A DNA stretch of 53,600 bases from Candidatus Methanomethylicia archaeon (GTDB lineage Archaea > Thermoproteota > Methanomethylicia > Nezhaarchaeales > B40-G2): the NCBI GenBank assembly GCA_029259155.1, contig JAPDJI010000019.1:1-53600 (forward strand), written 5' to 3'. Below the pieces are notes generated by a model. That model saw only the letters and a program-made list of their open reading frames with translations, was not told where the DNA came from and did not search any database. A program made the translations under genes and the position numbers. Position 1 is the first letter of the stretch, and each line of letters opens with the position of its first letter. Shown piece after piece: positions 11,304-41,280 of this stretch.

Positions 11304-11396
11304 GCCCCGGTAGTATAGCCATGCGAAGAGCACTAGAACGGTCAAGTATACCGGCCTTTCGAGCCGGCGACCCGGGTTCAAATCCCGGCCGGGGCA
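11304..11396 (+). tRNA. tRNA-Glu(TTC) with D-loop intron (11321-11338, 18 nt)
   Basis: After intron removal it is almost identical to the intronless tRNA-Glu(CTC) at 25529-25603; insert folds ATAG-CC|A-TGC-loop-GCA-CTAG-AA|C. Confidence 0.93.
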
Positions 11397-14358: not shown

Positions 14359-14757
14359 TTGAGTGGTGATGAAAAAACGGCCGAGTTAAAGAGGATATAT
14401 AAATGTGATGTTTGCGGAAATATCGTTGAGGTGTTGCACAGCGGTGTCGGTCAACTGGTTTGTTGCGGCCAACCCATGCGCTTAGTGGCAGAGGTAGAGG
14501 AAGGTTCCGCTGCGGAGAAACATGTCCCCATAGTGGACTATGGCGAGAAGATTACGGTTAAAGTGGGAAGCGTACCTCATCCCATGGAAGAGAAGCATTA
14601 CATTGAGTGGATTGCGGTCGAAACAGATGATGCTACATACAGGAAATACTTGCAGCCTGGCGCCAAGCCTGAAGCCCAATTTGAGTTAAAAGCGGATAAA
14701 GTACTTATTAAAGCGTACTGCAACATACATGGTCTATGGGTAAGGGGGAGGCTATAG
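14359..14757 (+). CDS. dfx: Desulfoferrodoxin (class I superoxide reductase); start may be ACG at 14377
   Basis: YKCDVCGN...[33 protein letters not shown]. Confidence 0.95.
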
Positions 14758-14759
14758 CT

Positions 14760-15329
14760 ATGGAAACCCTAAAAAACCTAGTTAAGGCTTTCATCGGAGA
14801 GTCCCAAGCTAGAAATCGCTACACCTTCTATGCAAAGAAAGCTAAGGAGGAAGGATACCATCAAATCGCCGAGGTTTTCCTCATGACCGCTGAAAACGAG
14901 AAAGAGCACGCCGAATCTCTCTTTGAGATGATACAGGAGCTTAAAGGTGATGTCAAGGAGATAACTGTAGATGCTACAGCACCTTTAATCATAGGGAACA
15001 CTGTGGAGAATTTGAAGGCTGCCATTGCTGGAGAACACCATGAGAACGCGAAGATGTACCCTGCCTTCGCGGAAGTTGCTGAGAGAGAGGGCTTAGTGAA
15101 GATAGCTAACAGGCTGAGGGCGATAGGTGTAGCTGAAAAACACCATGAGGAGAGGTACACCAAGCTGTTAAAAGAGGTTGAAAACGGTACTGTTTGGAAG
15201 AAGGATAGGGAAGTCTATTGGGTTTGCCTTGAATGTGGATATGTACACTTTGGTAAAGAACCTCCCGGTAAGTGTCCGTCCTGCGGCCACTCAAGAAACT
15301 ACTTCGTAGTGAAATGCGAGGAATATTAG
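14760..15329 (+). CDS. rbr: Rubrerythrin
   Basis: AFIGESQARNRY, ENEKEHA, EKHHEERY, C-terminal CLECGY...CPSC. Confidence 0.95.
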   Translation: METLKNLVKAFIGESQARNRYTFYAKKAKEEGYHQIAEVFLMTAENEKEHAESLFEMIQELKGDVKEITVDATAPLIIGNTVENLKAAIAGEHHENAKMYPAFAEVAEREGLVKIANRLRAIGVAEKHHEERYTKLLKEVENGTVWKKDREVYWVCLECGYVHFGKEPPGKCPSCGHSRNYFVVKCEEY

Positions 15330-15521
15330 GCTATTAAGATGATTGGTCAAAGAGCTCTCTTAAAGATAGGGTTACACGCAGGAAATGGAAGAATTCATCC
15401 TTTCATTATGTTATTAAGAAGATGAAGTAGGTTAAAAGAGTGGAGTTTCTAAGCTCACCGCTCATGTTCCTAAATGAAAATCCTTATACAGCTCGTCGGA
15501 CAACATAAGGTTTTGATGGAC

Positions 15522-15683
15522 ATGGCTAATTGGAGATGTAAGATCTGTGGCTACCTATTTGACGAAGAGGAAGGCCACCCTTCTCAGAATATTCCTCCAG
15601 GGACTCGTCTTGAAGAGCTACCTGAAGACTGGGTTTGTCCAATCTGTGGAGTTTCGAAAAGTGAGTTTGAGAGGGAAGAGTGA
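15522..15683 (+). CDS. Rubredoxin
   Basis: WRCKICGYLFDEEEG...IPPGT..EELPEDWVCPICG. Confidence 0.95.
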   Translation: MANWRCKICGYLFDEEEGHPSQNIPPGTRLEELPEDWVCPICGVSKSEFEREE

Positions 15684-16894
15684 TGCCAGCTGTAAAGTTG
15701 GCTAAGGATGTCTACTGGGTTGGAGCTGTGGACTGGACGCTAAGAGATTTTCATGGATATACGACTTCGAGGGGTACTACCTACAACGCCTACCTCATAA
15801 TTGATGAGAGGCCTACGCTAATCGACGTGGTTAAGCGTGGCTTTTTCGACGAGCTGGTTTTTAATATCGAGGAAGTCATACCTTTACGGGAGCTTAAATA
15901 CGTAGTTCTCAACCACATGGAGCCTGACCATACAGGAGTATTGACCCAGATGCTTAAGGAAGCTCCTCAAGCTGAGCTAGTAGCTAGTCAACGCTGTGAA
16001 CCTGCTTTATCGAAGTATCATAAGCTCGATCGCCAAGCCTTAAAAGTTAAGACAGGAGATGAGCTTCTCCTCGGCAGTAGGAAGCTACGTTTCATTGAGG
16101 TCCCTATGCTGCATTGGCCAGACTCGATGATGACGTACCTTGTTGATGAAGACATTCTCTTTAGTAGCGATGCTTTTGGACAACACTTAGCCACGGCGAC
16201 GAGGTTCGATGATCAATGCGATCTAGAAGTGTTGATGTATGAAGCTGCAAAGTACTACGCTAACATAATTCTGCCCTACAGCTCCTTAGTCTTGAACAAG
16301 CTCAACGAGCTTGAGAAGCTTCAGCTCAATATTAAGCTCCTGGCTCCAGGCCACGGTGTTATTTGGCGCGCACACATAACAGATATCGTCGAATCCTATA
16401 AGTACTGGGCATCTGCTTCTTCGACGAATAAAGTTGTGATTGTCTACGATACCATGTGGGGAAGCACTGAGCAAATGGCGAAGGCAGTGATGGAAGGAGT
16501 TGCGAACGAGGGTGTGGAGGTGCAGCTTTACCATTTAAGGAAGAGCGAATGGAGCCATATCATCAAGGAGCTCATGGATGCTAAGGCTCTCCTCGTTGGG
16601 ACACCTACTCTCAACAACACGACGTTTCCTACGGTTGCCGGTTTTCTAAACCATGTGAGAGGCCTCTTTACAAGGTACCTTAAGAGAGTAGGGGTGGAGA
16701 AGAAAAGATTTGCATTGGCCTTCGGCTCCTATGGTTGGAGCGGTGAAGCTGTTAAGGAGGTTGGTAAACAGCTCGAGGAAATGGGCTTTGAGGTACTTCC
16801 GCCGCTATCCATACAGTATCTCCCTTCAAGGGAAGAGATTAGATCGTTAGTGGAGTTTGGGAGAAAGGTGGCTGAAAAGGTCAAAGCAGCTTAG
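15680..16894 (+). CDS. fprA: Flavodiiron protein (FprA/NorV family)
   Basis: GTTYNAYLI, NHMEPDH, HWPDSM, SSDAFGQH, APGHG, flavodoxin YDTMWGST and FGSYGWSGEA. Confidence 0.95.
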   Translation: MMPAVKLAKDVYWVGAVDWTLRDFHGYTTSRGTTYNAYLIIDERPTLIDVVKRGFFDELVFNIEEVIPLRELKYVVLNHMEPDHTGVLTQMLKEAPQAELVASQRCEPALSKYHKLDRQALKVKTGDELLLGSRKLRFIEVPMLHWPDSMMTYLVDEDILFSSDAFGQHLATATRFDDQCDLEVLMYEAAKYYANIILPYSSLVLNKLNELEKLQLNIKLLAPGHGVIWRAHITDIVESYKYWASASSTNKVVIVYDTMWGSTEQMAKAVMEGVANEGVEVQLYHLRKSEWSHIIKELMDAKALLVGTPTLNNTTFPTVAGFLNHVRGLFTRYLKRVGVEKKRFALAFGSYGWSGEAVKEVGKQLEEMGFEVLPPLSIQYLPSREEIRSLVEFGRKVAEKVKAA

Positions 16895-19719: not shown

Positions 19720-20684
19720 TTAGGCCTCCTCCTATCCAAGCCCAGCCTGAAGCCATAGGGCTGAGTAGCTGTTATCTCCTTCAACCTTTCTTCGCCCACT
19801 TTCCTAAGATATTCCTCGTGACATGAAACTCCATAGACCCACTCTTCAAGATACTTCTGGAAGCTCTTATCACTCAGCGCAGAGTCGTAGTACATGTAGA
19901 GGTGTTTAGCGTCAACATCATAAAAGCCATAGCAGGCTGTGGGATGGGCGCCAAAGGGCACCTCAACTACTGCGTCGACGAGGAAGCCCGGAAGACAGTT
20001 AAGCTCTGGCTCGTGTCTCAGCTTTTCCTCTGAAACTATTTCCTCGCAAGTAACTATCAGGTGTCTAGAAGCTTTAGCCATCTCGACATCTGCGAACTTA
20101 AGTCCTTTCACCCTAACCGTGCCTTTCTCGCCTACGTACTGAGCGTGGATAATGGTTACATCTGGCTTTATAGCTGGTAGCAAGAGCACTTTTCCTCCAT
20201 TGAAGGGGTCCTCCGCTACGAGAAGTTTTCTCCTAGCTACCTTAGATTCTCGGCGAGTTTCAGGCCTTAAACCCTCTTTGGCAGCAATATCAGTGCCTAG
20301 ACCTGTCCTTGTAGGGATGAAAGGGATATCTAGGGCACCTGCGAGGAAGCGAAGCACCATTTGATAGTTGGAATAGTCCTCCCACTCAACTTCTCCTCGC
20401 TCAACTGCGAGCCTAAACCTAGGACATGTAGGTGCATACCTACCTAAGGCTCCATATGCCAGCTCGATCCTCTTGACGCAGCCAGCTCCTATTAAAAGGT
20501 CCATGGCTTGACCGTGAGAGTGCACATATAAATGCAGGTTTCTCACCCTCTGCCTAATGATCTCGTAGATAGCCGCCATGGGATTGCGATTAGCTGTAAA
20601 ACCACCAAGCGCTATGTGCGCGCCGTCTGGCACATGCTTCTTTACGGCCTCCTTAAGCGTCATCAGCTTACTGCCGAGCTCCAA
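19716..20684 (-). CDS. CoA-transferase subunit A (glutaconate CoA-transferase-like)
   Basis: GGFTANRNPMA, DLLIGAG, RFLAGALDIPFIP, PFGAHPT. Confidence 0.88.
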   Translation of the reverse strand: MELGSKLMTLKEAVKKHVPDGAHIALGGFTANRNPMAAIYEIIRQRVRNLHLYVHSHGQAMDLLIGAGCVKRIELAYGALGRYAPTCPRFRLAVERGEVEWEDYSNYQMVLRFLAGALDIPFIPTRTGLGTDIAAKEGLRPETRRESKVARRKLLVAEDPFNGGKVLLLPAIKPDVTIIHAQYVGEKGTVRVKGLKFADVEMAKASRHLIVTCEEIVSEEKLRHEPELNCLPGFLVDAVVEVPFGAHPTACYGFYDVDAKHLYMYYDSALSDKSFQKYLEEWVYGVSCHEEYLRKVGEERLKEITATQPYGFRLGLDRRRPK

Positions 20685-20852
20685 GCCCAGTCGCCACTAC
20701 CCAGTAAGGCTTTTAAGATAAAAGCTGATACACGTGAGCCTTAAGATATACCCCCTAAAATCCATGAGGTAATAAATATTCAAGATTAAGTTGCATATGT
20801 GAAGTTGAAGCGGCATAGGAGTAATGCATTAAAATTCAAGTATGTATTCTTA

Positions 20853-20883
20853 CCAGGGTTGGAACCCGGCCCTCGCTCGAGGG
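20853..20883 (-). repeat. Degenerate copy of the tRNA-Glu(CTC) 3' half (putative eroded att site)
   Basis: ccagggttggaacccggccctc-gctcgaggg aligns with ccgggatttgaacccgggccgccggctcgagag in the tRNA at about 25537-25569, same orientation. Confidence 0.6.
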
Positions 20884-20990
20884 ATGCGTCCACGTAAAAG
20901 CCTATGTAAAAGAGTTGAAGACACTACAGCCCGCTGTTCAGAACTGCTTCATGGCGCTGTAATACATTAAGCCTCCATGCAAAACTCTGG

Positions 20991-21430
20991 CTAGGCCGCC
21001 ACCTTCCTTAAGACGTCCTCGGCGGCCACCCGCTCCCTGTAGTGAAGAGTACAGTCCAGCTTCCTATGCCCTGTAAGCTTGGCGATTAGCTGGCTGGGTT
21101 GCTCTGTTTGGCTAGGTGGGTTATGAAGGCGTAGCGTAGCGCGGTGTTGAAGCCCAAGCTCCTCGTGGATTATGACGAGGCGCTCGTAGCTTTCTTTGCG
21201 CTTGAGCACCCTAACCTTAACCTCGCGCTCACCGCTCGAGGCCCATTAAAGCGCAACGTCTACAGTCTCGCTAATGCTAGGCCGTTAGCCAGTTGGGTTA
21301 GGAGGATTGGGCTTAGGCATGTCTTGTTAAGCTTCAAGCCCTTTGGCCTCCTTGCTCTTGAGGACTTTGAGCAGCTAACGCCTAGCCTGCTCGAACTCCA
21401 AGCTCTTCCCAAGCATAGAGCCTGACCATA
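20991..21430 (-). pseudogene. Tyrosine recombinase/integrase pseudogene (frameshifts, internal stops, deletions)
   Basis: Fragments in different frames: ILLTQLANG / ISETVD, REVKVRVLKRK, GFNT-ALRYAFITHLAK (HxxR His missing), IAKLTGHRKLDCTLHY. Confidence 0.8.
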
Positions 21431-21820
21431 GCTGTAACCTTTGAGCCCTAAGGTATCTATCCCCTCTACTGCCTCAAACCAACCAGGTGAAGGGCGAAGA
21501 AATCCTAGTAGGTATCTGGAACAGCAGAGATACCTCAAGGCTCCCAGAGGATAGAGAGGATTGTTGAGAACGAGGCTTAACAATAAATCCTAAGTAAACG
21601 TACAATCATACAAGTTGCGTGTTCAAGGATTCTATTGAAGGTGTACCAAGGTCGCAGTTCTAGTTGTAGATGAAGCAAGAGGCATAGCGAGGATGTTGCG
21701 TGTGCGATAGCTACATTGATAACCACTCAAGTCGTAAGCGGCTCGGTTATCAAGAAGAAGTGCCTTGAAAGATCCTACATCGACGCGATGAGATGCGAAG
21801 GACGAGTAGGTGCTACTATA

Positions 21821-21853
21821 GTATTAATATTCTAATATTCGTAACATTTATAA
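21821..21853 (+). promoter_or_regulatory. Imperfect palindromic operator GTATTA-N15-TAACAT abutting TATA box TTTATAA (NikR-like)
   Basis: Same spacing and same position relative to the TATA box as the motif at 24879-24905. Confidence 0.55.
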
Positions 21854-21888
21854 ACTAGTGGGGCTATCCTCTCCTGGGTCGTAAGAGA

Positions 21889-22056
21889 ATGTGTACGGCT
21901 ATCGCTACCAACACAGCTTCTGCCATGCTCGTGGCACAGGCTGCCTTAATGAGCAAGGTCATTGCTTTAAGCGCCTTAGTAAGTATAGTAGCACTGAACC
22001 TGAGGGGGAAACTGGCAGGGTTCTTTAAGGCCCTTCCTAAGGTGTTTAAACTTTAG
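21889..22056 (+). CDS. 55-aa peptide not in the ORF track; candidate radical SAM substrate or small membrane peptide
   Basis: MCTAIATNTASAMLVAQAALMSKVIALSALVSIVALNLRGKLAGFFKALPKVFKL; fills the gap between promoter and radical SAM gene. Confidence 0.6.
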   Translation: MCTAIATNTASAMLVAQAALMSKVIALSALVSIVALNLRGKLAGFFKALPKVFKL

Positions 22057-22077
22057 CTTCTTTTTTAGGGTTGGGAA

Positions 22078-22911
22078 GTGTTTGGTAGACCGATAATACA
22101 GGTTGAACCTACAAACCATTGTAATGAAAATTGTGACATTTGCGTGAGGATGTATCAGAAGAGGGAGCTAGGCTTCATGGACTTCGATGACTTTAAACGA
22201 TTCGTGGACTTAAATAGGCCTTACTATCTGGGTTTCCATGGCTGGGGAGAGCCACTTTTACATGAGAAAATACATGACATGGTGGCGTACGCAGCTTCTA
22301 AGGGCTCCATCACCAGTCTGATAACTAACGGTACGCTAGTGAGCTATGAGGAACTCAGGAGGCTCTTTAACTCAGGGCTCAAGGAGCTGGCCTTCGGGGT
22401 GTATCGAGTTGAAAAGCTTAAACGTATCTCGAAGAAAGTAGAGTACGCAGTTAAGATAAAGAGGGAGCTTCACTTAAAGAAGCCTAGGCTCTTTCTTGAC
22501 ATAGCGTTCTACGAAGGAAACGTAGATGAAGTTCCTGCTATTATAGAGGAAGGACGACGACTTGGGATTGAAGCTATAAATCTACATAGAGTCTTCAACC
22601 CCTACGATGAATCGATTATGCCACTAAGCAAAGAAAGGGAAAGGGAGCTTATGACAAAGGTAAAGAAGATCTCTAAAGAGCTAGGTCTGAAGATCTCCTT
22701 ACCTGGAAAACACAGCTTACCTTGCAGGGTCGCAAAGTTCAGCATTTTTATTACATGGGACTTCAAGATTACTCCTTGCTGTTTCCTTCCTGACCTCTCC
22801 TTCGCTCACGGGCCGAGTATTAAAGTAAGTGACATCGTAGGCTCGCAGAGTTACAAGGCTTTCCTCAAATCGATGTCGAAAAACACCATTTGTAGTAGGT
22901 GTACCTTATGA
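22078..22911 (+). CDS. Radical SAM enzyme with SPASM/Twitch-like C-terminal domain
   Basis: EPTNHCNENCDIC, GWGEPLLH, ITNGTL, C...ITWDFKITPCC...CSRC. Confidence 0.88.
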   Translation: MFGRPIIQVEPTNHCNENCDICVRMYQKRELGFMDFDDFKRFVDLNRPYYLGFHGWGEPLLHEKIHDMVAYAASKGSITSLITNGTLVSYEELRRLFNSGLKELAFGVYRVEKLKRISKKVEYAVKIKRELHLKKPRLFLDIAFYEGNVDEVPAIIEEGRRLGIEAINLHRVFNPYDESIMPLSKERERELMTKVKKISKELGLKISLPGKHSLPCRVAKFSIFITWDFKITPCCFLPDLSFAHGPSIKVSDIVGSQSYKAFLKSMSKNTICSRCTL

Positions 22912-23468
22912 AGAAGACAGACCCTCCAATAACCCTTAAACTGACAATCATGTTTCTCTCAGCTGCCATAAGCACATCTTTAAACCTTGTCCTTCCTATT
23001 AGAGAGGTCCTTAGCATCTTAGGAATACCTGGGCCAGCTGGAGGGATTGCAGTCTTCGGGGGCTTCATCTTCACCTTCTGGATCGTAGCTGCCTACTTAA
23101 TAGCAGGCTGTCAGCGACTAAGCTGTCTATCTACAGCTATCCTTATACCCTCCTTCTGCATGCTCTTTTCCCCGTGGTACGGCGTCGTTGATCCTCCCTG
23201 GTTTGGGATTTACGGAATTTTAGCATTTACAGTAGCCGGTGCAATAGTGGAATGGATGTATAGGTGTGAAGGAGGACTTAAGTCACTTGCTCTTGGAGGG
23301 GGGTTGTCCAATATGCTTTGTTACCTAGTCACCTTGATAGCGATAGGAGCACATACGGATCTCTGGCCTCCTCAAGCATTCATTCCCTTAAACACCTCGT
23401 TATCCTTCACTTCAGGGCTTATTGGCTCTCTCCTAGCATATTTACTAATAAAAACAGGTAAAGTTTAG
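22899..23468 (+). CDS. Integral membrane protein with about 5-6 TM helices, possibly ECF S-component-like (likely start 22908)
   Basis: Hydrophobic profile; GIPGPAGG and SPWYGVVDPPWFG loops; overlaps the radical SAM stop codon. Confidence 0.65.
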   Translation: MYLMKKTDPPITLKLTIMFLSAAISTSLNLVLPIREVLSILGIPGPAGGIAVFGGFIFTFWIVAAYLIAGCQRLSCLSTAILIPSFCMLFSPWYGVVDPPWFGIYGILAFTVAGAIVEWMYRCEGGLKSLALGGGLSNMLCYLVTLIAIGAHTDLWPPQAFIPLNTSLSFTSGLIGSLLAYLLIKTGKV

Positions 23469-23488
23469 AGAAAAACTACGTCGCAAAC

Positions 23489-24847
23489 CTACCTTGTCTT
23501 CCTCAACTTAACAATGCAGGCAGTCGTAATTAGTATAGTAACCAGTATTAGTATAGCAATCACAGCGTAGATCCAAGTAGGCACCACCTCTACTTGCACC
23601 TCTATGGTCTCCTGCTCAGGAGCTGGCATGAGGCCGATGTTGACATACGGGTTAACACCAGCTATTCTCAGATTGGTGAGCTCCGAGGAGCTTTCAATAG
23701 TAAACTCCTCTACAGTCGAAACTAGCTCCTCTGGCTCTCCAAGTTTGTCGAGTAGGTCTAGGTCCATCTTGAGCCTCGCGTACCACCATTTATAAGTGTT
23801 GAAATCTTTGAACCAACTCCTCTCAATACCGCTCTGCTCACAGGCCCTATCCCAGTCAAAGGTTAGCACTACAGCATCCCCGCGACCGTCTCCTCTATCC
23901 CACCTAACGTAAATCCCTGCTACATTGGACGGCAATTGCTGGCTTTGCTCTCTGCTTAACATCATAACCGTCATCCTCCTCTTACCGACGGTGGAGTCGT
24001 AAACCGCTTGGAAGGCGTCATCCTTGCACCAGGGTGGAACCGCTAGTATTATGTAGTATTGGTCATTTTCTTGAATGGGCAAGTATTTATCCAAGTACTC
24101 AATTATAATGGTACCGCTGATGAGCCCTGGGCATATGTGATTATGAAGCTCCGCTGCTCTATACAGCTCGTAAGGTAAGCCCTTGTCCCAACATGCAGCT
24201 ATGGTCATTATTGAGAACTCGTTGCCACCAAAAACCTTACTCTCCATCCTTTCATGCCAAGCCTCCGGGTTGTTCAACAAGTTCTCAGCACCTACGTTCT
24301 CAACCGCTACTCTCTCGAAAAGCTCTTCATCAGCTAAGTTCATGAAGGCTTCTAGAACCGCCCCTTTATCAGTTGCAGCTCTCCACTCCTCCATGTATGA
24401 GGCTAGCACGTTGCTATTGGCCTCTATGTAGACGCAGTCACCTGAGCCCTTACGGTAAAAAGCGAACCAGACCGCTTTCCACTTGGGTGAGTTAACTGAG
24501 ATAAGGTTTCCGCGGCTCTCACAGCAGCCAGAGATTAACGCTAGAGCATCTAGGCAGTCTGATGTCGGGTACTCGTCCATAATGATTGATGCCCCTGCAT
24601 TAGTGATAACTAGTACATCAATATTTCCTCGCTGAAAGCCCAGCCTCTCCATAGCTACGTTAACGGCCCGGTATGCTAGTAGGTGCATAGGGCTTATCTC
24701 CTCTTCATTGATCAACACTTCTAAGTACTCTAGGTCAGGGTAGTCATCCATCAAGCTGGCGCCAACAGCCGTCATGGAGGTAGCAGTCACGAAGAGTATT
24801 AGAAAGGCGAACAAGACGCATAGACGAAGTAACTGCATTAACACCAC
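23489..24847 (-). CDS. Exported, C-terminally anchored FmdE-family protein (degenerate + intact FmdE domain)
   Basis: Signal peptide; ELHNHICPGLISG and PPWCKDDAFQ metal motifs; N-terminal CLDAL..SGC..RGNL repeat; C-terminal TM plus basic tail. Confidence 0.8.
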   Translation of the reverse strand: MVLMQLLRLCVLFAFLILFVTATSMTAVGASLMDDYPDLEYLEVLINEEEISPMHLLAYRAVNVAMERLGFQRGNIDVLVITNAGASIIMDEYPTSDCLDALALISGCCESRGNLISVNSPKWKAVWFAFYRKGSGDCVYIEANSNVLASYMEEWRAATDKGAVLEAFMNLADEELFERVAVENVGAENLLNNPEAWHERMESKVFGGNEFSIMTIAACWDKGLPYELYRAAELHNHICPGLISGTIIIEYLDKYLPIQENDQYYIILAVPPWCKDDAFQAVYDSTVGKRRMTVMMLSREQSQQLPSNVAGIYVRWDRGDGRGDAVVLTFDWDRACEQSGIERSWFKDFNTYKWWYARLKMDLDLLDKLGEPEELVSTVEEFTIESSSELTNLRIAGVNPYVNIGLMPAPEQETIEVQVEVVPTWIYAVIAILILVTILITTACIVKLRKTR

Positions 24848-25998: not shown

Positions 25999-26105
25999 GC
26001 CGGGGTCGCCTAGCTGGCCTAGGGCGCCAGACTCATAGTCAGACGTTGAGGCCAGGCGCCTGAGGGGGTATCTGGTCATCGCGGGTTCGAATCCCGCCCC
26101 CGGCA
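25999..26105 (+). tRNA. tRNA-Met(CAT), elongator type, canonical 37/38 intron (26038-26069, 32 nt)
   Basis: GCCGGGG acceptor, CCAGA-CT-CAT-A|intron|A-TCTGG. Confidence 0.92.
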
Positions 26106-41178: not shown

Positions 41179-41280
41179 GGGCCCGTAGCTCAGCATGGTA
41201 GAGCAACGGGCTTTTAACCCGGAAGGGGGGCCATTAGCCCTCCTGGGGAGTGGTCGCGGGTTCAAATCCCGCCGGGCCCG
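41179..41280 (+). tRNA. tRNA-Lys(TTT) with non-canonical intron at about 43/44 (41223-41250, 28 nt)
   Basis: GGGCCCG acceptor, CT-TTT-AA loop; insert folds ACCC-GG|A-AGGGGGGC-loop-GCCCTCCT-GGGG-AG|T; exact junction less certain. Confidence 0.88.

Follow-up and report, generated by a model that had tools for sequence, protein, structure and literature searches.

A conserved cassette of a small membrane peptide, a radical-SAM enzyme, an S-component-like protein and an exported FmdE protein: a candidate metal-acquisition module of anaerobic archaea and bacteria

Gene content and distribution of the cassette

The stretch of DNA analyzed here, hereafter the window, comprises 53,600 nucleotides of contig JAPDJI010000019.1 (positions 1 to 53,600) from a Candidatus Methanomethylicia archaeon (assembly GCA_029259155.1) and contains a compact gene cassette that recurs among other archaea and bacteria. 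The cassette consists of genes for a small peptide, a radical S-adenosylmethionine (SAM) enzyme and a multi-transmembrane protein on one strand and, convergent to these, a gene for an FmdE-family protein (Table 1); this is the gene set that an earlier note, made from the bare sequence, had described, and it is confirmed here. The ATG of the membrane protein gene (22908) overlaps the TGA stop codon of the enzyme gene as ATGA.

A one-genome-per-species scan revealed 307 relatives of the enzyme, of which the best 80 loci (given L numbers) were retained and, with the window, make up the 81 loci considered below. By record title, the best 80 of the 307 loci are found on 53 archaeal and 27 bacterial contigs. 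Applied across the 81 loci, iterated hidden Markov models recognized the peptide family in 79 locus records (107 open reading frames, ORFs); for the membrane protein and FmdE the numbers are 59 and 51. Neighbor clustering further revealed a protein with tetratricopeptide (TPR) repeats, assigned by Pfam, in 34 loci. Within 60 genomes related to that of the window, an orthologue of the enzyme is present in only one (G014, 53% identity), where the same four genes are found in the same order and the peptide begins MCTTIAAN; eight further relatives have matches with E-values of 1e-10 or better, and these are distantly related radical-SAM proteins with 25-35% identity.

Co-occurrence was counted only in loci with enough flanking DNA, and a locus was taken as complete when it had at least 3 kb on both sides (n=35). 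In 74 of the 80 loci whose upstream sequence is long enough, the peptide gene immediately precedes the enzyme gene on the same strand; of the six exceptions (L042, L047, L052, L061, L063 and L065), three have the peptide at another place in the locus. Within 3 kb of the enzyme gene, the peptide family is present in 77 of 80 loci and the membrane protein in 51 of 66. Among the complete loci, 34 contain the peptide, 26 the membrane protein, 21 FmdE and 20 the TPR protein, while either FmdE or TPR is present in 34 of the 35, as is either the membrane protein or TPR. Co-occurrence of all four genes, on which the first proposal for this locus turned, is wide, with the full set in 18 of the 35 complete loci. 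The module is made up of four or five co-inherited genes, and its tightest and most constant link is that between the peptide and the enzyme, which persists in loci where the membrane protein is absent.

The peptide family

The small ORF is a real, conserved and constrained gene, far beyond what chance would produce. Met1 and Cys2 are invariant in 102 of 102 unique peptides, Pro4 is present in 100 (the exceptions being the peptides of the window, with Ala, and of G014, with Thr), Val or Ile occupies position 5 in 96 peptides and Val position 7 in 90; the conserved part is the first seven residues of a family whose members range from 45 to 80 residues. The Met1 codon is ATG in 103 of 104 genes, and Shine-Dalgarno-like purine runs of the GGAGG type precede the ATG in most of 40 upstream stretches, chiefly those from bacteria and anaerobic methanotrophic (ANME) archaea; therefore, the protein starts with Met-Cys, whatever longer ORF may be possible. 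When 23 non-overlapping pairs of related peptide genes were pooled, with two peptides skipped, the proportions of synonymous (pS) and nonsynonymous (pN) differences were 0.203 and 0.052, a pN/pS of 0.255. Conserved frames starting with Met-Cys upstream of radical-SAM homologues, suggested as a check when the peptide was first noticed, are thus evident from this conservation and from the adjacency given above. No Pfam or NCBIfam model matched the family, and in a collection of 5.8 billion proteins it forms 105 clusters named only "hypothetical protein", apart from one evident mislabel, "FliO".

The most hydrophobic 17-residue segment of the peptides begins at about residue 22. The mean net charge is +3.67 on its C-terminal side and +0.25 on its N-terminal side, with the C-terminal side the more positive in 99 of 101 peptides, and only 1 of 101 has a charged residue within the first nine positions. 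Cys2 is the sole cysteine in 63 of 101. Following the positive-inside rule, which is well established, the peptide is predicted to cross the membrane once, with its short uncharged N-terminal tail outside and its basic tail inside.

Several loci hold two to four copies of the peptide gene, and these copies, together with the order of peptide then radical-SAM gene that is typical of such clusters, could point to the precursor of a secreted, bacteriocin-like peptide that is made by the ribosome and then modified (RiPP), for which the other genes would provide immunity or export. This is very improbable given that no leader peptide or cleavage motif is evident, that the invariant part of the peptide is its extreme N-terminus and the remainder a membrane helix with a positive-inside tail, and that the same architecture is found across very distant phyla. 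Moreover, no protease or peptide-exporting ATP-binding cassette transporter is found among the recurrent neighbor clusters that were annotated, ORFs confined to a single locus being unannotated; this agrees with the earlier note, which had reported neither at the window locus.

Two subtypes of the peptide can be distinguished in bacteria. Peptides of the form MC[V/L]P...WP occur only in loci with a TPR gene, and those of the form MCAP...MPQI adjoin the enzyme and the membrane protein. Where a locus has both partners, the two peptide types are usually found together, as in L041, L050 and L084, while L020, L022 and L083 have the V type only. Because the loci are related to one another, this correspondence is reported as a pattern to which no statistic is attached.

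The radical-SAM enzyme

The CX3CX2C motif of the enzyme (C15/C19/C22) and its match to Pfam Radical_SAM (PF04055; 39.2 bits, cut-off 29.5) place it in the radical-SAM superfamily, and it also matches the Pfam SPASM model (26.9 bits, cut-off 21.5). All 77 homologues have C15, C19, C22, C216 and C234, and C272 is found in 75 of them, C275 in 73 and C235 in 60. A SPASM domain with two auxiliary clusters has seven to eight C-terminal cysteines, and only four are conserved here (C216, C234, C272 and C275), a number that fits a Twitch-like C-terminal domain and would be enough for one auxiliary cluster. The SPASM/Twitch label first given to the enzyme consequently stands with respect to the superfamily and the Pfam SPASM match but not with respect to a two-cluster SPASM domain. 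The C-x17-C...C-x2-C spacing of these cysteines is presumably also that of BtrN. The C-terminal 78 residues of the enzyme gave no match to sequences of solved structures at E up to 10. No NCBIfam model attains its cut-off; the best match is TIGR04317 (tungsten cofactor oxidoreductase radical SAM maturase), with 85.6 bits against a cut-off of 380.

An AlphaFold2 model of the enzyme (predicted local distance difference test, pLDDT, 92.6) was compared with solved folds, and the matches are SkfB (Z 23.1, root-mean-square deviation (rmsd) 2.8, 254 residues), BlsE (22.2), SuiB (22.2), PqqE (21.7), viperin (20.6), anSME (20.3), CteB (19.7), DesII (19.3), MoaA (19.0) and BtrN (17.3). Foldseek agrees with these structural neighbors, and the nearest solved members of the SPASM/Twitch group are peptide maturases and dehydrogenases. 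SuiB is aligned from residue 103 onward and CteB from residue 90, past the peptide-recognition domains (RiPP recognition elements, RREs) of these proteins, and therefore the enzyme appears to be without such a domain; its cluster motif starts at residue 15, leaving no room for an N-terminal domain. The peptide and enzyme thus resemble a RiPP pair in that the precursor gene lies beside that of the maturase, and depart from one in that no leader peptide and RRE are found, the conserved part of the peptide being its first seven residues.

These observations can be read in another way, in which the peptide is an unmodified small subunit of a membrane complex, comparable to CbiN with CbiM, and the enzyme acts on a small molecule (a metallophore or cofactor precursor) or on the FmdE or TPR protein. 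An enzyme without a peptide-recognition domain would be expected in this case, small-molecule enzymes (BlsE, viperin, DesII, MoaA and BtrN) are among the close folds, the best NCBIfam match is to a cofactor maturase, although far below cut-off, and it is the membrane protein or TPR partner, and not the enzyme, that the peptide subtypes track. We nevertheless regard it as unlikely. The peptide is linked more tightly to the enzyme than to any other gene, even where there is no membrane protein, and no other biosynthetic genes recur among the neighbors. In addition, the invariant feature of the peptide is an N-terminal cysteine, which is the residue class acted upon by SPASM/Twitch peptide maturases such as anSME, the sactisynthases and the ranthipeptide synthases.

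The membrane protein

The AlphaFold2 model of the membrane protein (pLDDT 93.8) consists of six long helices. In a comparison with 48,161 representative chains, the top 14 were all S-components of energy-coupling factor (ECF) transporters, the best being 5edl (Z 16.6, with 164 of the 189 residues aligned at an rmsd of 3.1) and others including ThiT, PanT, RibU, FolT, BioY, NikM (4m5c, Z 10.9) and CbiM (5x3x, Z 8.8); BtuM comes after these (Z 7.6). Foldseek also places the same S-components first, with weak E-values (best 0.045). Judged by its model, the protein has the fold of an ECF-transporter S-component, and the "S-component-like" label first applied to it holds at this level. At the level of sequence, no Pfam or NCBIfam family, S-component models included, matched at E up to 1, and the protein is distinct from CbiM and NikM in having no PF01891 match and in beginning with MKKTDPP or MYLMKK. 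Its conserved polar residues, E118, C141 and S172, are located in helices 4 to 6. Another contig of the window's genome (C8) encodes a CbiQ/EcfT-family protein and two ECF-type ATPases, which are candidate partners of the membrane protein.

Co-folding of the peptide with the membrane protein gave a score of 0.34 (runs of 0.40, 0.20 and 0.34), against 0.01 for the best of three controls, with at least 97% of contacts in agreement between runs and a partner pLDDT of at least 62. In the calibration, whose counts hold roughly here since the co-fold used our own alignments, 116 of 157 solved complexes attained the mark, as did 2 of 215 mismatched pairs; at scores of 0.60 or under it was attained by only 18 of the 157 complexes and by both of the passing mismatches. 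The co-fold is accordingly a small increment of weak support for a pairing of the peptide with the membrane protein.

FmdE and TPR surface proteins

The FmdE protein matches PF02663 (73.9 bits, cut-off 22.9) and contains the metal site H235-x-H237-x-C239...C274, whose four ligands are invariant in 31 of 31 long homologues; NCBIfam gave no meaningful match for it. The window protein possesses an N-terminal hydrophobic signal and a C-terminal transmembrane segment followed by KLRKTR, and the corresponding hydrophobic segments are found in 29 of 31 homologues at the N-terminus and in 21 of 31 at the C-terminus. An exported, membrane-anchored FmdE protein with an HxHxC..C site, as first described from the window alone, is well supported by these results. 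In a structural study (PMC2954224), solved FmdE relatives are reported to have a solvent-exposed tetrahedral site made of the same four ligands, occupied in one crystal by Zn and Ni and in another by Zn; the same study states that most PF02663 genes adjoin genes for metal-ion transporters and that FmdE is found fused to UPF0066 (PF01980, TrmO_N). While the window protein shares the Zn/Ni site of the two solved members, these are cytoplasmic proteins of 150-200 residues, some with a zinc ribbon, whereas the subfamily described here has about 420-460 residues with an extra N-terminal half, is exported and is in most cases anchored by its C-terminal helix. The sequence of the window protein gave no match to those of solved structures at E up to 0.01, and the ESM Atlas gave only a generic FmdE cluster (score 0.76).

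The TPR protein is membrane-anchored and either substitutes for FmdE or accompanies it. Its basic N-terminus precedes a single hydrophobic helix, which suggests that the TPR domain faces outward.

Two further observations concern these loci. PF01980 genes, of the TrmO/TsaA-like kind, are found in or beside the cassette in four loci (L041 227-790, L046 5352-5744, L049 3902-4306 and L081 1261-1665), with an NCBIfam TrmO score of 165 bits (cut-off 93) for that of L049; their products may represent a SAM-binding partner of the cassette. In three loci of the ANME-1/Methanophagales type (L047 7045-11419, L061 7035-12727 and L063 7269-9449), two or three tandem TPR-peptide pairs follow a single radical-SAM gene. 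These three loci also carry a divergent third peptide type, MCAPISVA[VI]GG..., and a PD40 beta-propeller protein then follows in L047 and L063, L061 ending earlier.

Gene neighborhoods and the identity of the metal

By our count, at least one metal-uptake neighbor is present in 19 of the 81 loci, and the recurrence of such genes beside the cassette supports the metal-capture context that the earlier note had claimed. Fur-family regulators are found beside the cassette in 5 loci, DUF4198 proteins in 5, and TonB-dependent receptors in 6, with ExbB and DUF3450 in L073 and L077. Directly after the cassette in L021, L024 and L051 are genes for CbiM, a NikL-like protein, CbiQ and an ATPase; CbiM exceeds one NCBIfam cut-off, and the NikL-like protein scores below cut-off. 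Opp/Nik-type ATPase pairs are found in L068 and L069, Znu/Azt-type permeases in L065, and Peripla_BP_2 proteins in L075 and L078, while in L075 and L082 the enzyme gene is followed by genes for an ECF sigma factor, an anti-sigma factor and a Metal_resist (PF13801) protein.

On two Methanosarcinales contigs (L021 513-3520 and L024 156-3148), CobB/CobQ-like, NifH-like and CbiX genes lie upstream of the cassette, and a DUF4198 gene lies downstream with the CbiM, NikL-like, CbiQ and ATPase genes. The CbiX, CobB/CobQ-like and NifH-like set presumably corresponds to the F430 pathway genes cfbA, cfbB and cfbC. In L026, L035 and L040 (Methanophagales/Methanobacteriota), a GNAT acetyltransferase gene and a radical-SAM pair (Radical_SAM and Fer4_12) are located downstream of the membrane protein gene and convergent to the cassette.

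With regard to the metal itself, nickel or cobalt had been proposed at the outset, and zinc is equally possible. Nickel is favored by the F430 and Nik gene contexts, and zinc by the FmdE crystals, the DUF4198 proteins and the Znu-type neighbors; one member of DUF4198 is reported to be a periplasmic zinc-capture protein (PMC12663993).

The substrate might instead be an organic cofactor that the module imports or salvages, namely a corrinoid, a tetrapyrrole of the F430 or siroheme type or some other vitamin, with the peptide cysteine ligating the cofactor as the cysteine of BtuM binds cobalamin. BtuM is among the fold matches of the membrane protein, S-components are mostly vitamin carriers, some of the TonB receptors score best against a B12 receptor model (in L075, 280 bits against a cut-off of 600), and the Peripla_BP_2 proteins and the tetrapyrrole-pathway genes flanking L021 and L024 would also be in keeping with this. 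It is nonetheless quite unlikely, since every score against the B12 model is well below cut-off, Fur-family regulators and ion transporters of the Znu, Nik and CbiM types are the commoner neighbors, and no cobalamin or other riboswitch was found at gathering score in 30 related loci or the window. The FmdE site, furthermore, is reported to hold bare Zn or Ni in crystals (PMC2954224).

Buffering, sensing or detoxification of metals at the envelope, without import, is a further alternative, for which the copper-binding bufferins would be the model. Ribosomal peptide metallophores serving in metal stress are described in the literature (PMC11626156), and the ECF sigma, anti-sigma and Metal_resist genes in L075 and L082 would suit such a function. 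The contexts are, however, dominated by uptake machinery (TonB receptors, ExbB, the S-component, NikMNQO-like genes and Znu-type permeases) and by Fur-family regulators, and a role in buffering is thus improbable.

A candidate envelope module for metal acquisition

The best explanation for these findings as a whole, to which we assign a probability of roughly 0.45, is that the genes form a conserved cell-envelope module of anaerobes that helps in acquiring a transition metal in short supply (Ni, Zn or Co). From the parts, their conservation, folds and gene contexts we infer modification of the peptide, the metal and its transport in the following form. The cytoplasmic radical-SAM enzyme would act upon the N-terminus of the peptide, most likely at Cys2, because this is its only invariant side chain and cysteine is the usual target in the SPASM/Twitch group. 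The peptide would then insert into the membrane with its uncharged tail outward and its basic tail inward, where the outer tail may work together with the outward-facing FmdE or TPR domain, which would capture or present the metal. The N-terminus and helix of the peptide may pack upon the S-component-like protein and complete its binding site, in what would be a split analogue of NikM/CbiM. Finally, the substrate would be passed inward, with energy that could come from an ECF module encoded elsewhere or from another transporter.

Several points weigh against this explanation. No annotated metal neighbor is present in 62 of the 81 loci, although many of the contigs are short, and neither a metal gene nor a regulator is found near the window locus, whose neighbors are CoA-transferase subunits, tRNA-Glu and a KaiC-like ATPase. 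The Fur-family matches are all below the NCBIfam cut-offs and so are ambiguous as to metal, and the best-scoring models for the TonB receptors are those for heme, B12 or siderophores, again below cut-off in all cases; therefore, the metal cannot be assigned from these regulators and receptors. S-components usually carry vitamins rather than metals, and the S-component-like gene is absent from 9 of the 35 complete loci. The enzyme model shows no recognizable peptide-recognition domain, and a co-fold pass at the score obtained here is more often wrong than right unless the pairing is already likely. Lastly, related loci are non-independent samples.

A more specific form of the metal-acquisition explanation may be considered, although we think it unlikely. 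In this form, the peptide would be a ribosomal metallophore tethered to the membrane, the first to be made by a radical-SAM enzyme, with hydrogen abstraction at Cys2 as in anSME and with the modified N-terminus serving as the detachable binding element of a split S-component, loaded outside the cell by the FmdE or TPR receptor. The product would then be either a sulfur/nitrogen chelating group similar to that of methanobactin or, resembling that of Ni-superoxide dismutase, a protected amine-amide-thiolate hook at the N-terminus.

Comparison with known systems

The module resembles three known kinds of system, the Nik/Cbi transporters, methanobactin and the SPASM/Twitch maturases, yet differs from each. 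As in NikMNQO/CbiMNQO, a protein with an S-component fold is found with a small membrane partner. In NikM and CbiM, an extracellular N-terminus (Met-His...) on an extra helix enters the pocket as a ligand of the metal, whereas in the present module the N-terminus that would bear the metal (Met-Cys-x-Pro) resides on a separate peptide of 45-80 residues. The membrane protein, in addition, matches neither CbiM nor any other S-component family in sequence, its obligatory companions are the radical-SAM enzyme and an FmdE or TPR protein that is exported, and the cassette encodes neither T nor A components.

The likeness to methanobactin and the bufferins lies in a small ribosomal peptide whose cysteine would be enzymatically altered for metal binding, and in the TonB receptors, ECF sigma and anti-sigma factors and periplasmic binding proteins found here in L059, L073, L075, L077 and L082, the methanobactin operon being compared in its generally known layout. 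In contrast to methanobactin, the enzyme is an oxygen-independent radical-SAM protein rather than an iron enzyme of the MbnBC/DUF692 type, the peptide has no leader and keeps a membrane helix, so that it is probably retained at the membrane, and the hosts are strict anaerobes, many of them archaea. Neither MbnB nor MbnC (DUF692 type) is found among the annotated recurrent neighbor clusters, the single-locus ORFs being unannotated.

SPASM/Twitch maturases and dehydrogenases (SkfB, CteB, SuiB, PqqE, anSME and BtrN) share with the enzyme a core followed by a C-terminal auxiliary-cluster domain (Z 17-23), and the maturases also share the position of the putative substrate gene immediately upstream and cysteine as the likely target. 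The enzyme differs in its short length of 277 residues, with no N-terminal recognition domain and four conserved C-terminal cysteines. In sulfatases, anSME oxidizes the motif C-x-P-x-R, part of which is resembled by the C-x-P of the peptide; position +4 of the peptide, however, is Ser, Ala, Thr or Tyr in 101 of 102 and never Arg, and the enzyme has a single set of four auxiliary cysteines, where the enzyme of the sulfatase system has two auxiliary clusters.

Literature searches revealed no description of a system of peptide, enzyme, membrane protein and FmdE, nothing that joins FmdE with SPASM, and nothing that joins three of SPASM, S-component, precursor peptide and ECF transporter; the single paper found to combine FmdE, radical SAM and nickel is a broad survey of methanogen genomes. 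The archaeal CrpC system, subject of the closest recent paper on radical-SAM peptides in archaea (PMC13692751), is different, having three clusters, an RRE and a Cys-rich protein substrate. As it stands, the module is a variant on known kinds, and it would be categorically new if a membrane-tethered metallophore made by a radical-SAM enzyme were confirmed.

Promoter regions and other features of the window

Putative promoters of the two transcription units were read from the sequence (Table 1), that of the peptide-enzyme-membrane protein unit being 35 nt upstream of the peptide start codon. The two promoter regions have in common only the palindromic TATA-like 8-mer TTTATAAA. The operator that both units had been said to share was rejected, as 188 of 500 shuffles also produced a common 8-mer or longer and 81 of 300 shuffles attained the best local alignment score.

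The gap that separates the peptide gene from the CoA-transferase genes, about 1.2 kb long, contains no convincing gene. Its ORFs of 93 and 107 residues have no Pfam match and no homologue in related loci, the gap has no second copy in the genome, and a search of 20650-21900 with Rfam at a relaxed threshold gave two sub-threshold matches only. A tRNA-like fragment in the gap (a weak match to the mascRNA model, E 0.34) has no significant match to the tRNAs of the window, and the idea of a mobile island was dropped.

Elsewhere in the window are an oxygen-stress cluster (14359-16894), a crenactin-like archaeal actin (Pfam Actin E 2.6e-14, 53.1 bits, cut-off 27) beside an ORF without a family, and ORFs of RNA polymerase size. 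Three tRNA genes are detected by Rfam but not by ARAGORN; two of these are 102-107 nt in length and so probably contain introns. The window is archaeal, with tRNAs that bear introns, the actin-like protein and the ORFs of RNA polymerase size. An ORF of 563 residues with no Pfam family coincides with the lowest GC content of the window (0.41-0.43, against about 0.48).

Table 1. Coordinates of the cassette, its putative promoters and other features of the window.
Feature	Position	Strand	Remarks
Peptide gene, 55 aa	21889-22056	+	From ORF listing; N-terminus MCTAIATN(T), hydrophobic core, basic tail
Radical-SAM enzyme gene, 277 aa	22078-22911	+	Starts 22 nt 3' of peptide gene
Multi-transmembrane protein gene, 189 aa	22899/22908-23468	+	Longest ORF from GTG 22899; ATG 22908
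FmdE protein gene, 452 aa	23489-24847	-	Convergent; 20 nt from end of membrane protein gene; likely true start ATG 24838
TATA-like box TTTATAAA	21847-21854	+	Putative promoter of peptide-enzyme-membrane protein unit
TATA-like box TTTATAAA	24889-24896	-	Upstream of FmdE gene; putative promoter
Gap upstream of peptide gene	20690-21885		
tRNA-like fragment	~20847-20900		Within upstream gap
tRNA gene	11309-11390		
tRNA gene	25999-26105		
tRNA gene	41179-41280		
ORF, 563 aa	11455-13146	-	
Desulfoferrodoxin	14359-14757		Oxygen-stress cluster
Rubrerythrin	14736-15329		Oxygen-stress cluster
Flavodiiron-type protein	15680-16894		Oxygen-stress cluster; ODP/lactamase_B and flavodoxin
ORF, 240 aa	30154-30876		Beside actin gene
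Crenactin-like actin, 423 aa	30869-32140	-	

Significance

Anaerobes require Ni, Co and Zn in large amounts for F430, carbon monoxide dehydrogenase/acetyl-CoA synthase, hydrogenases and corrinoids, and the supply of these metals in sulfidic sediments, where they are locked as sulfides, is poorly understood. The question concerns the ANME-1 methane oxidizers and their sulfate-reducing partners as well as the Bathyarchaeia and Dehalococcoidia. A compact cassette of a peptide of about 50 residues, a small enzyme, an S-component-like protein and a surface metal-binding protein offers a tractable handle on metal acquisition in such organisms.

If the proposed explanation is true, the SPASM/Twitch radical-SAM enzymes would gain a new substrate class and possibly a new chemistry, the FmdE domain would gain a role, having been without a defined function since the structures of 2010, and a peptide family now annotated only as "hypothetical protein" would receive its first function. 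The metallophore form of the explanation, if true, would reveal a new route to Ni, Zn or Co for archaea and bacteria in sulfidic sediments, including the methane-oxidizing ANME-1.

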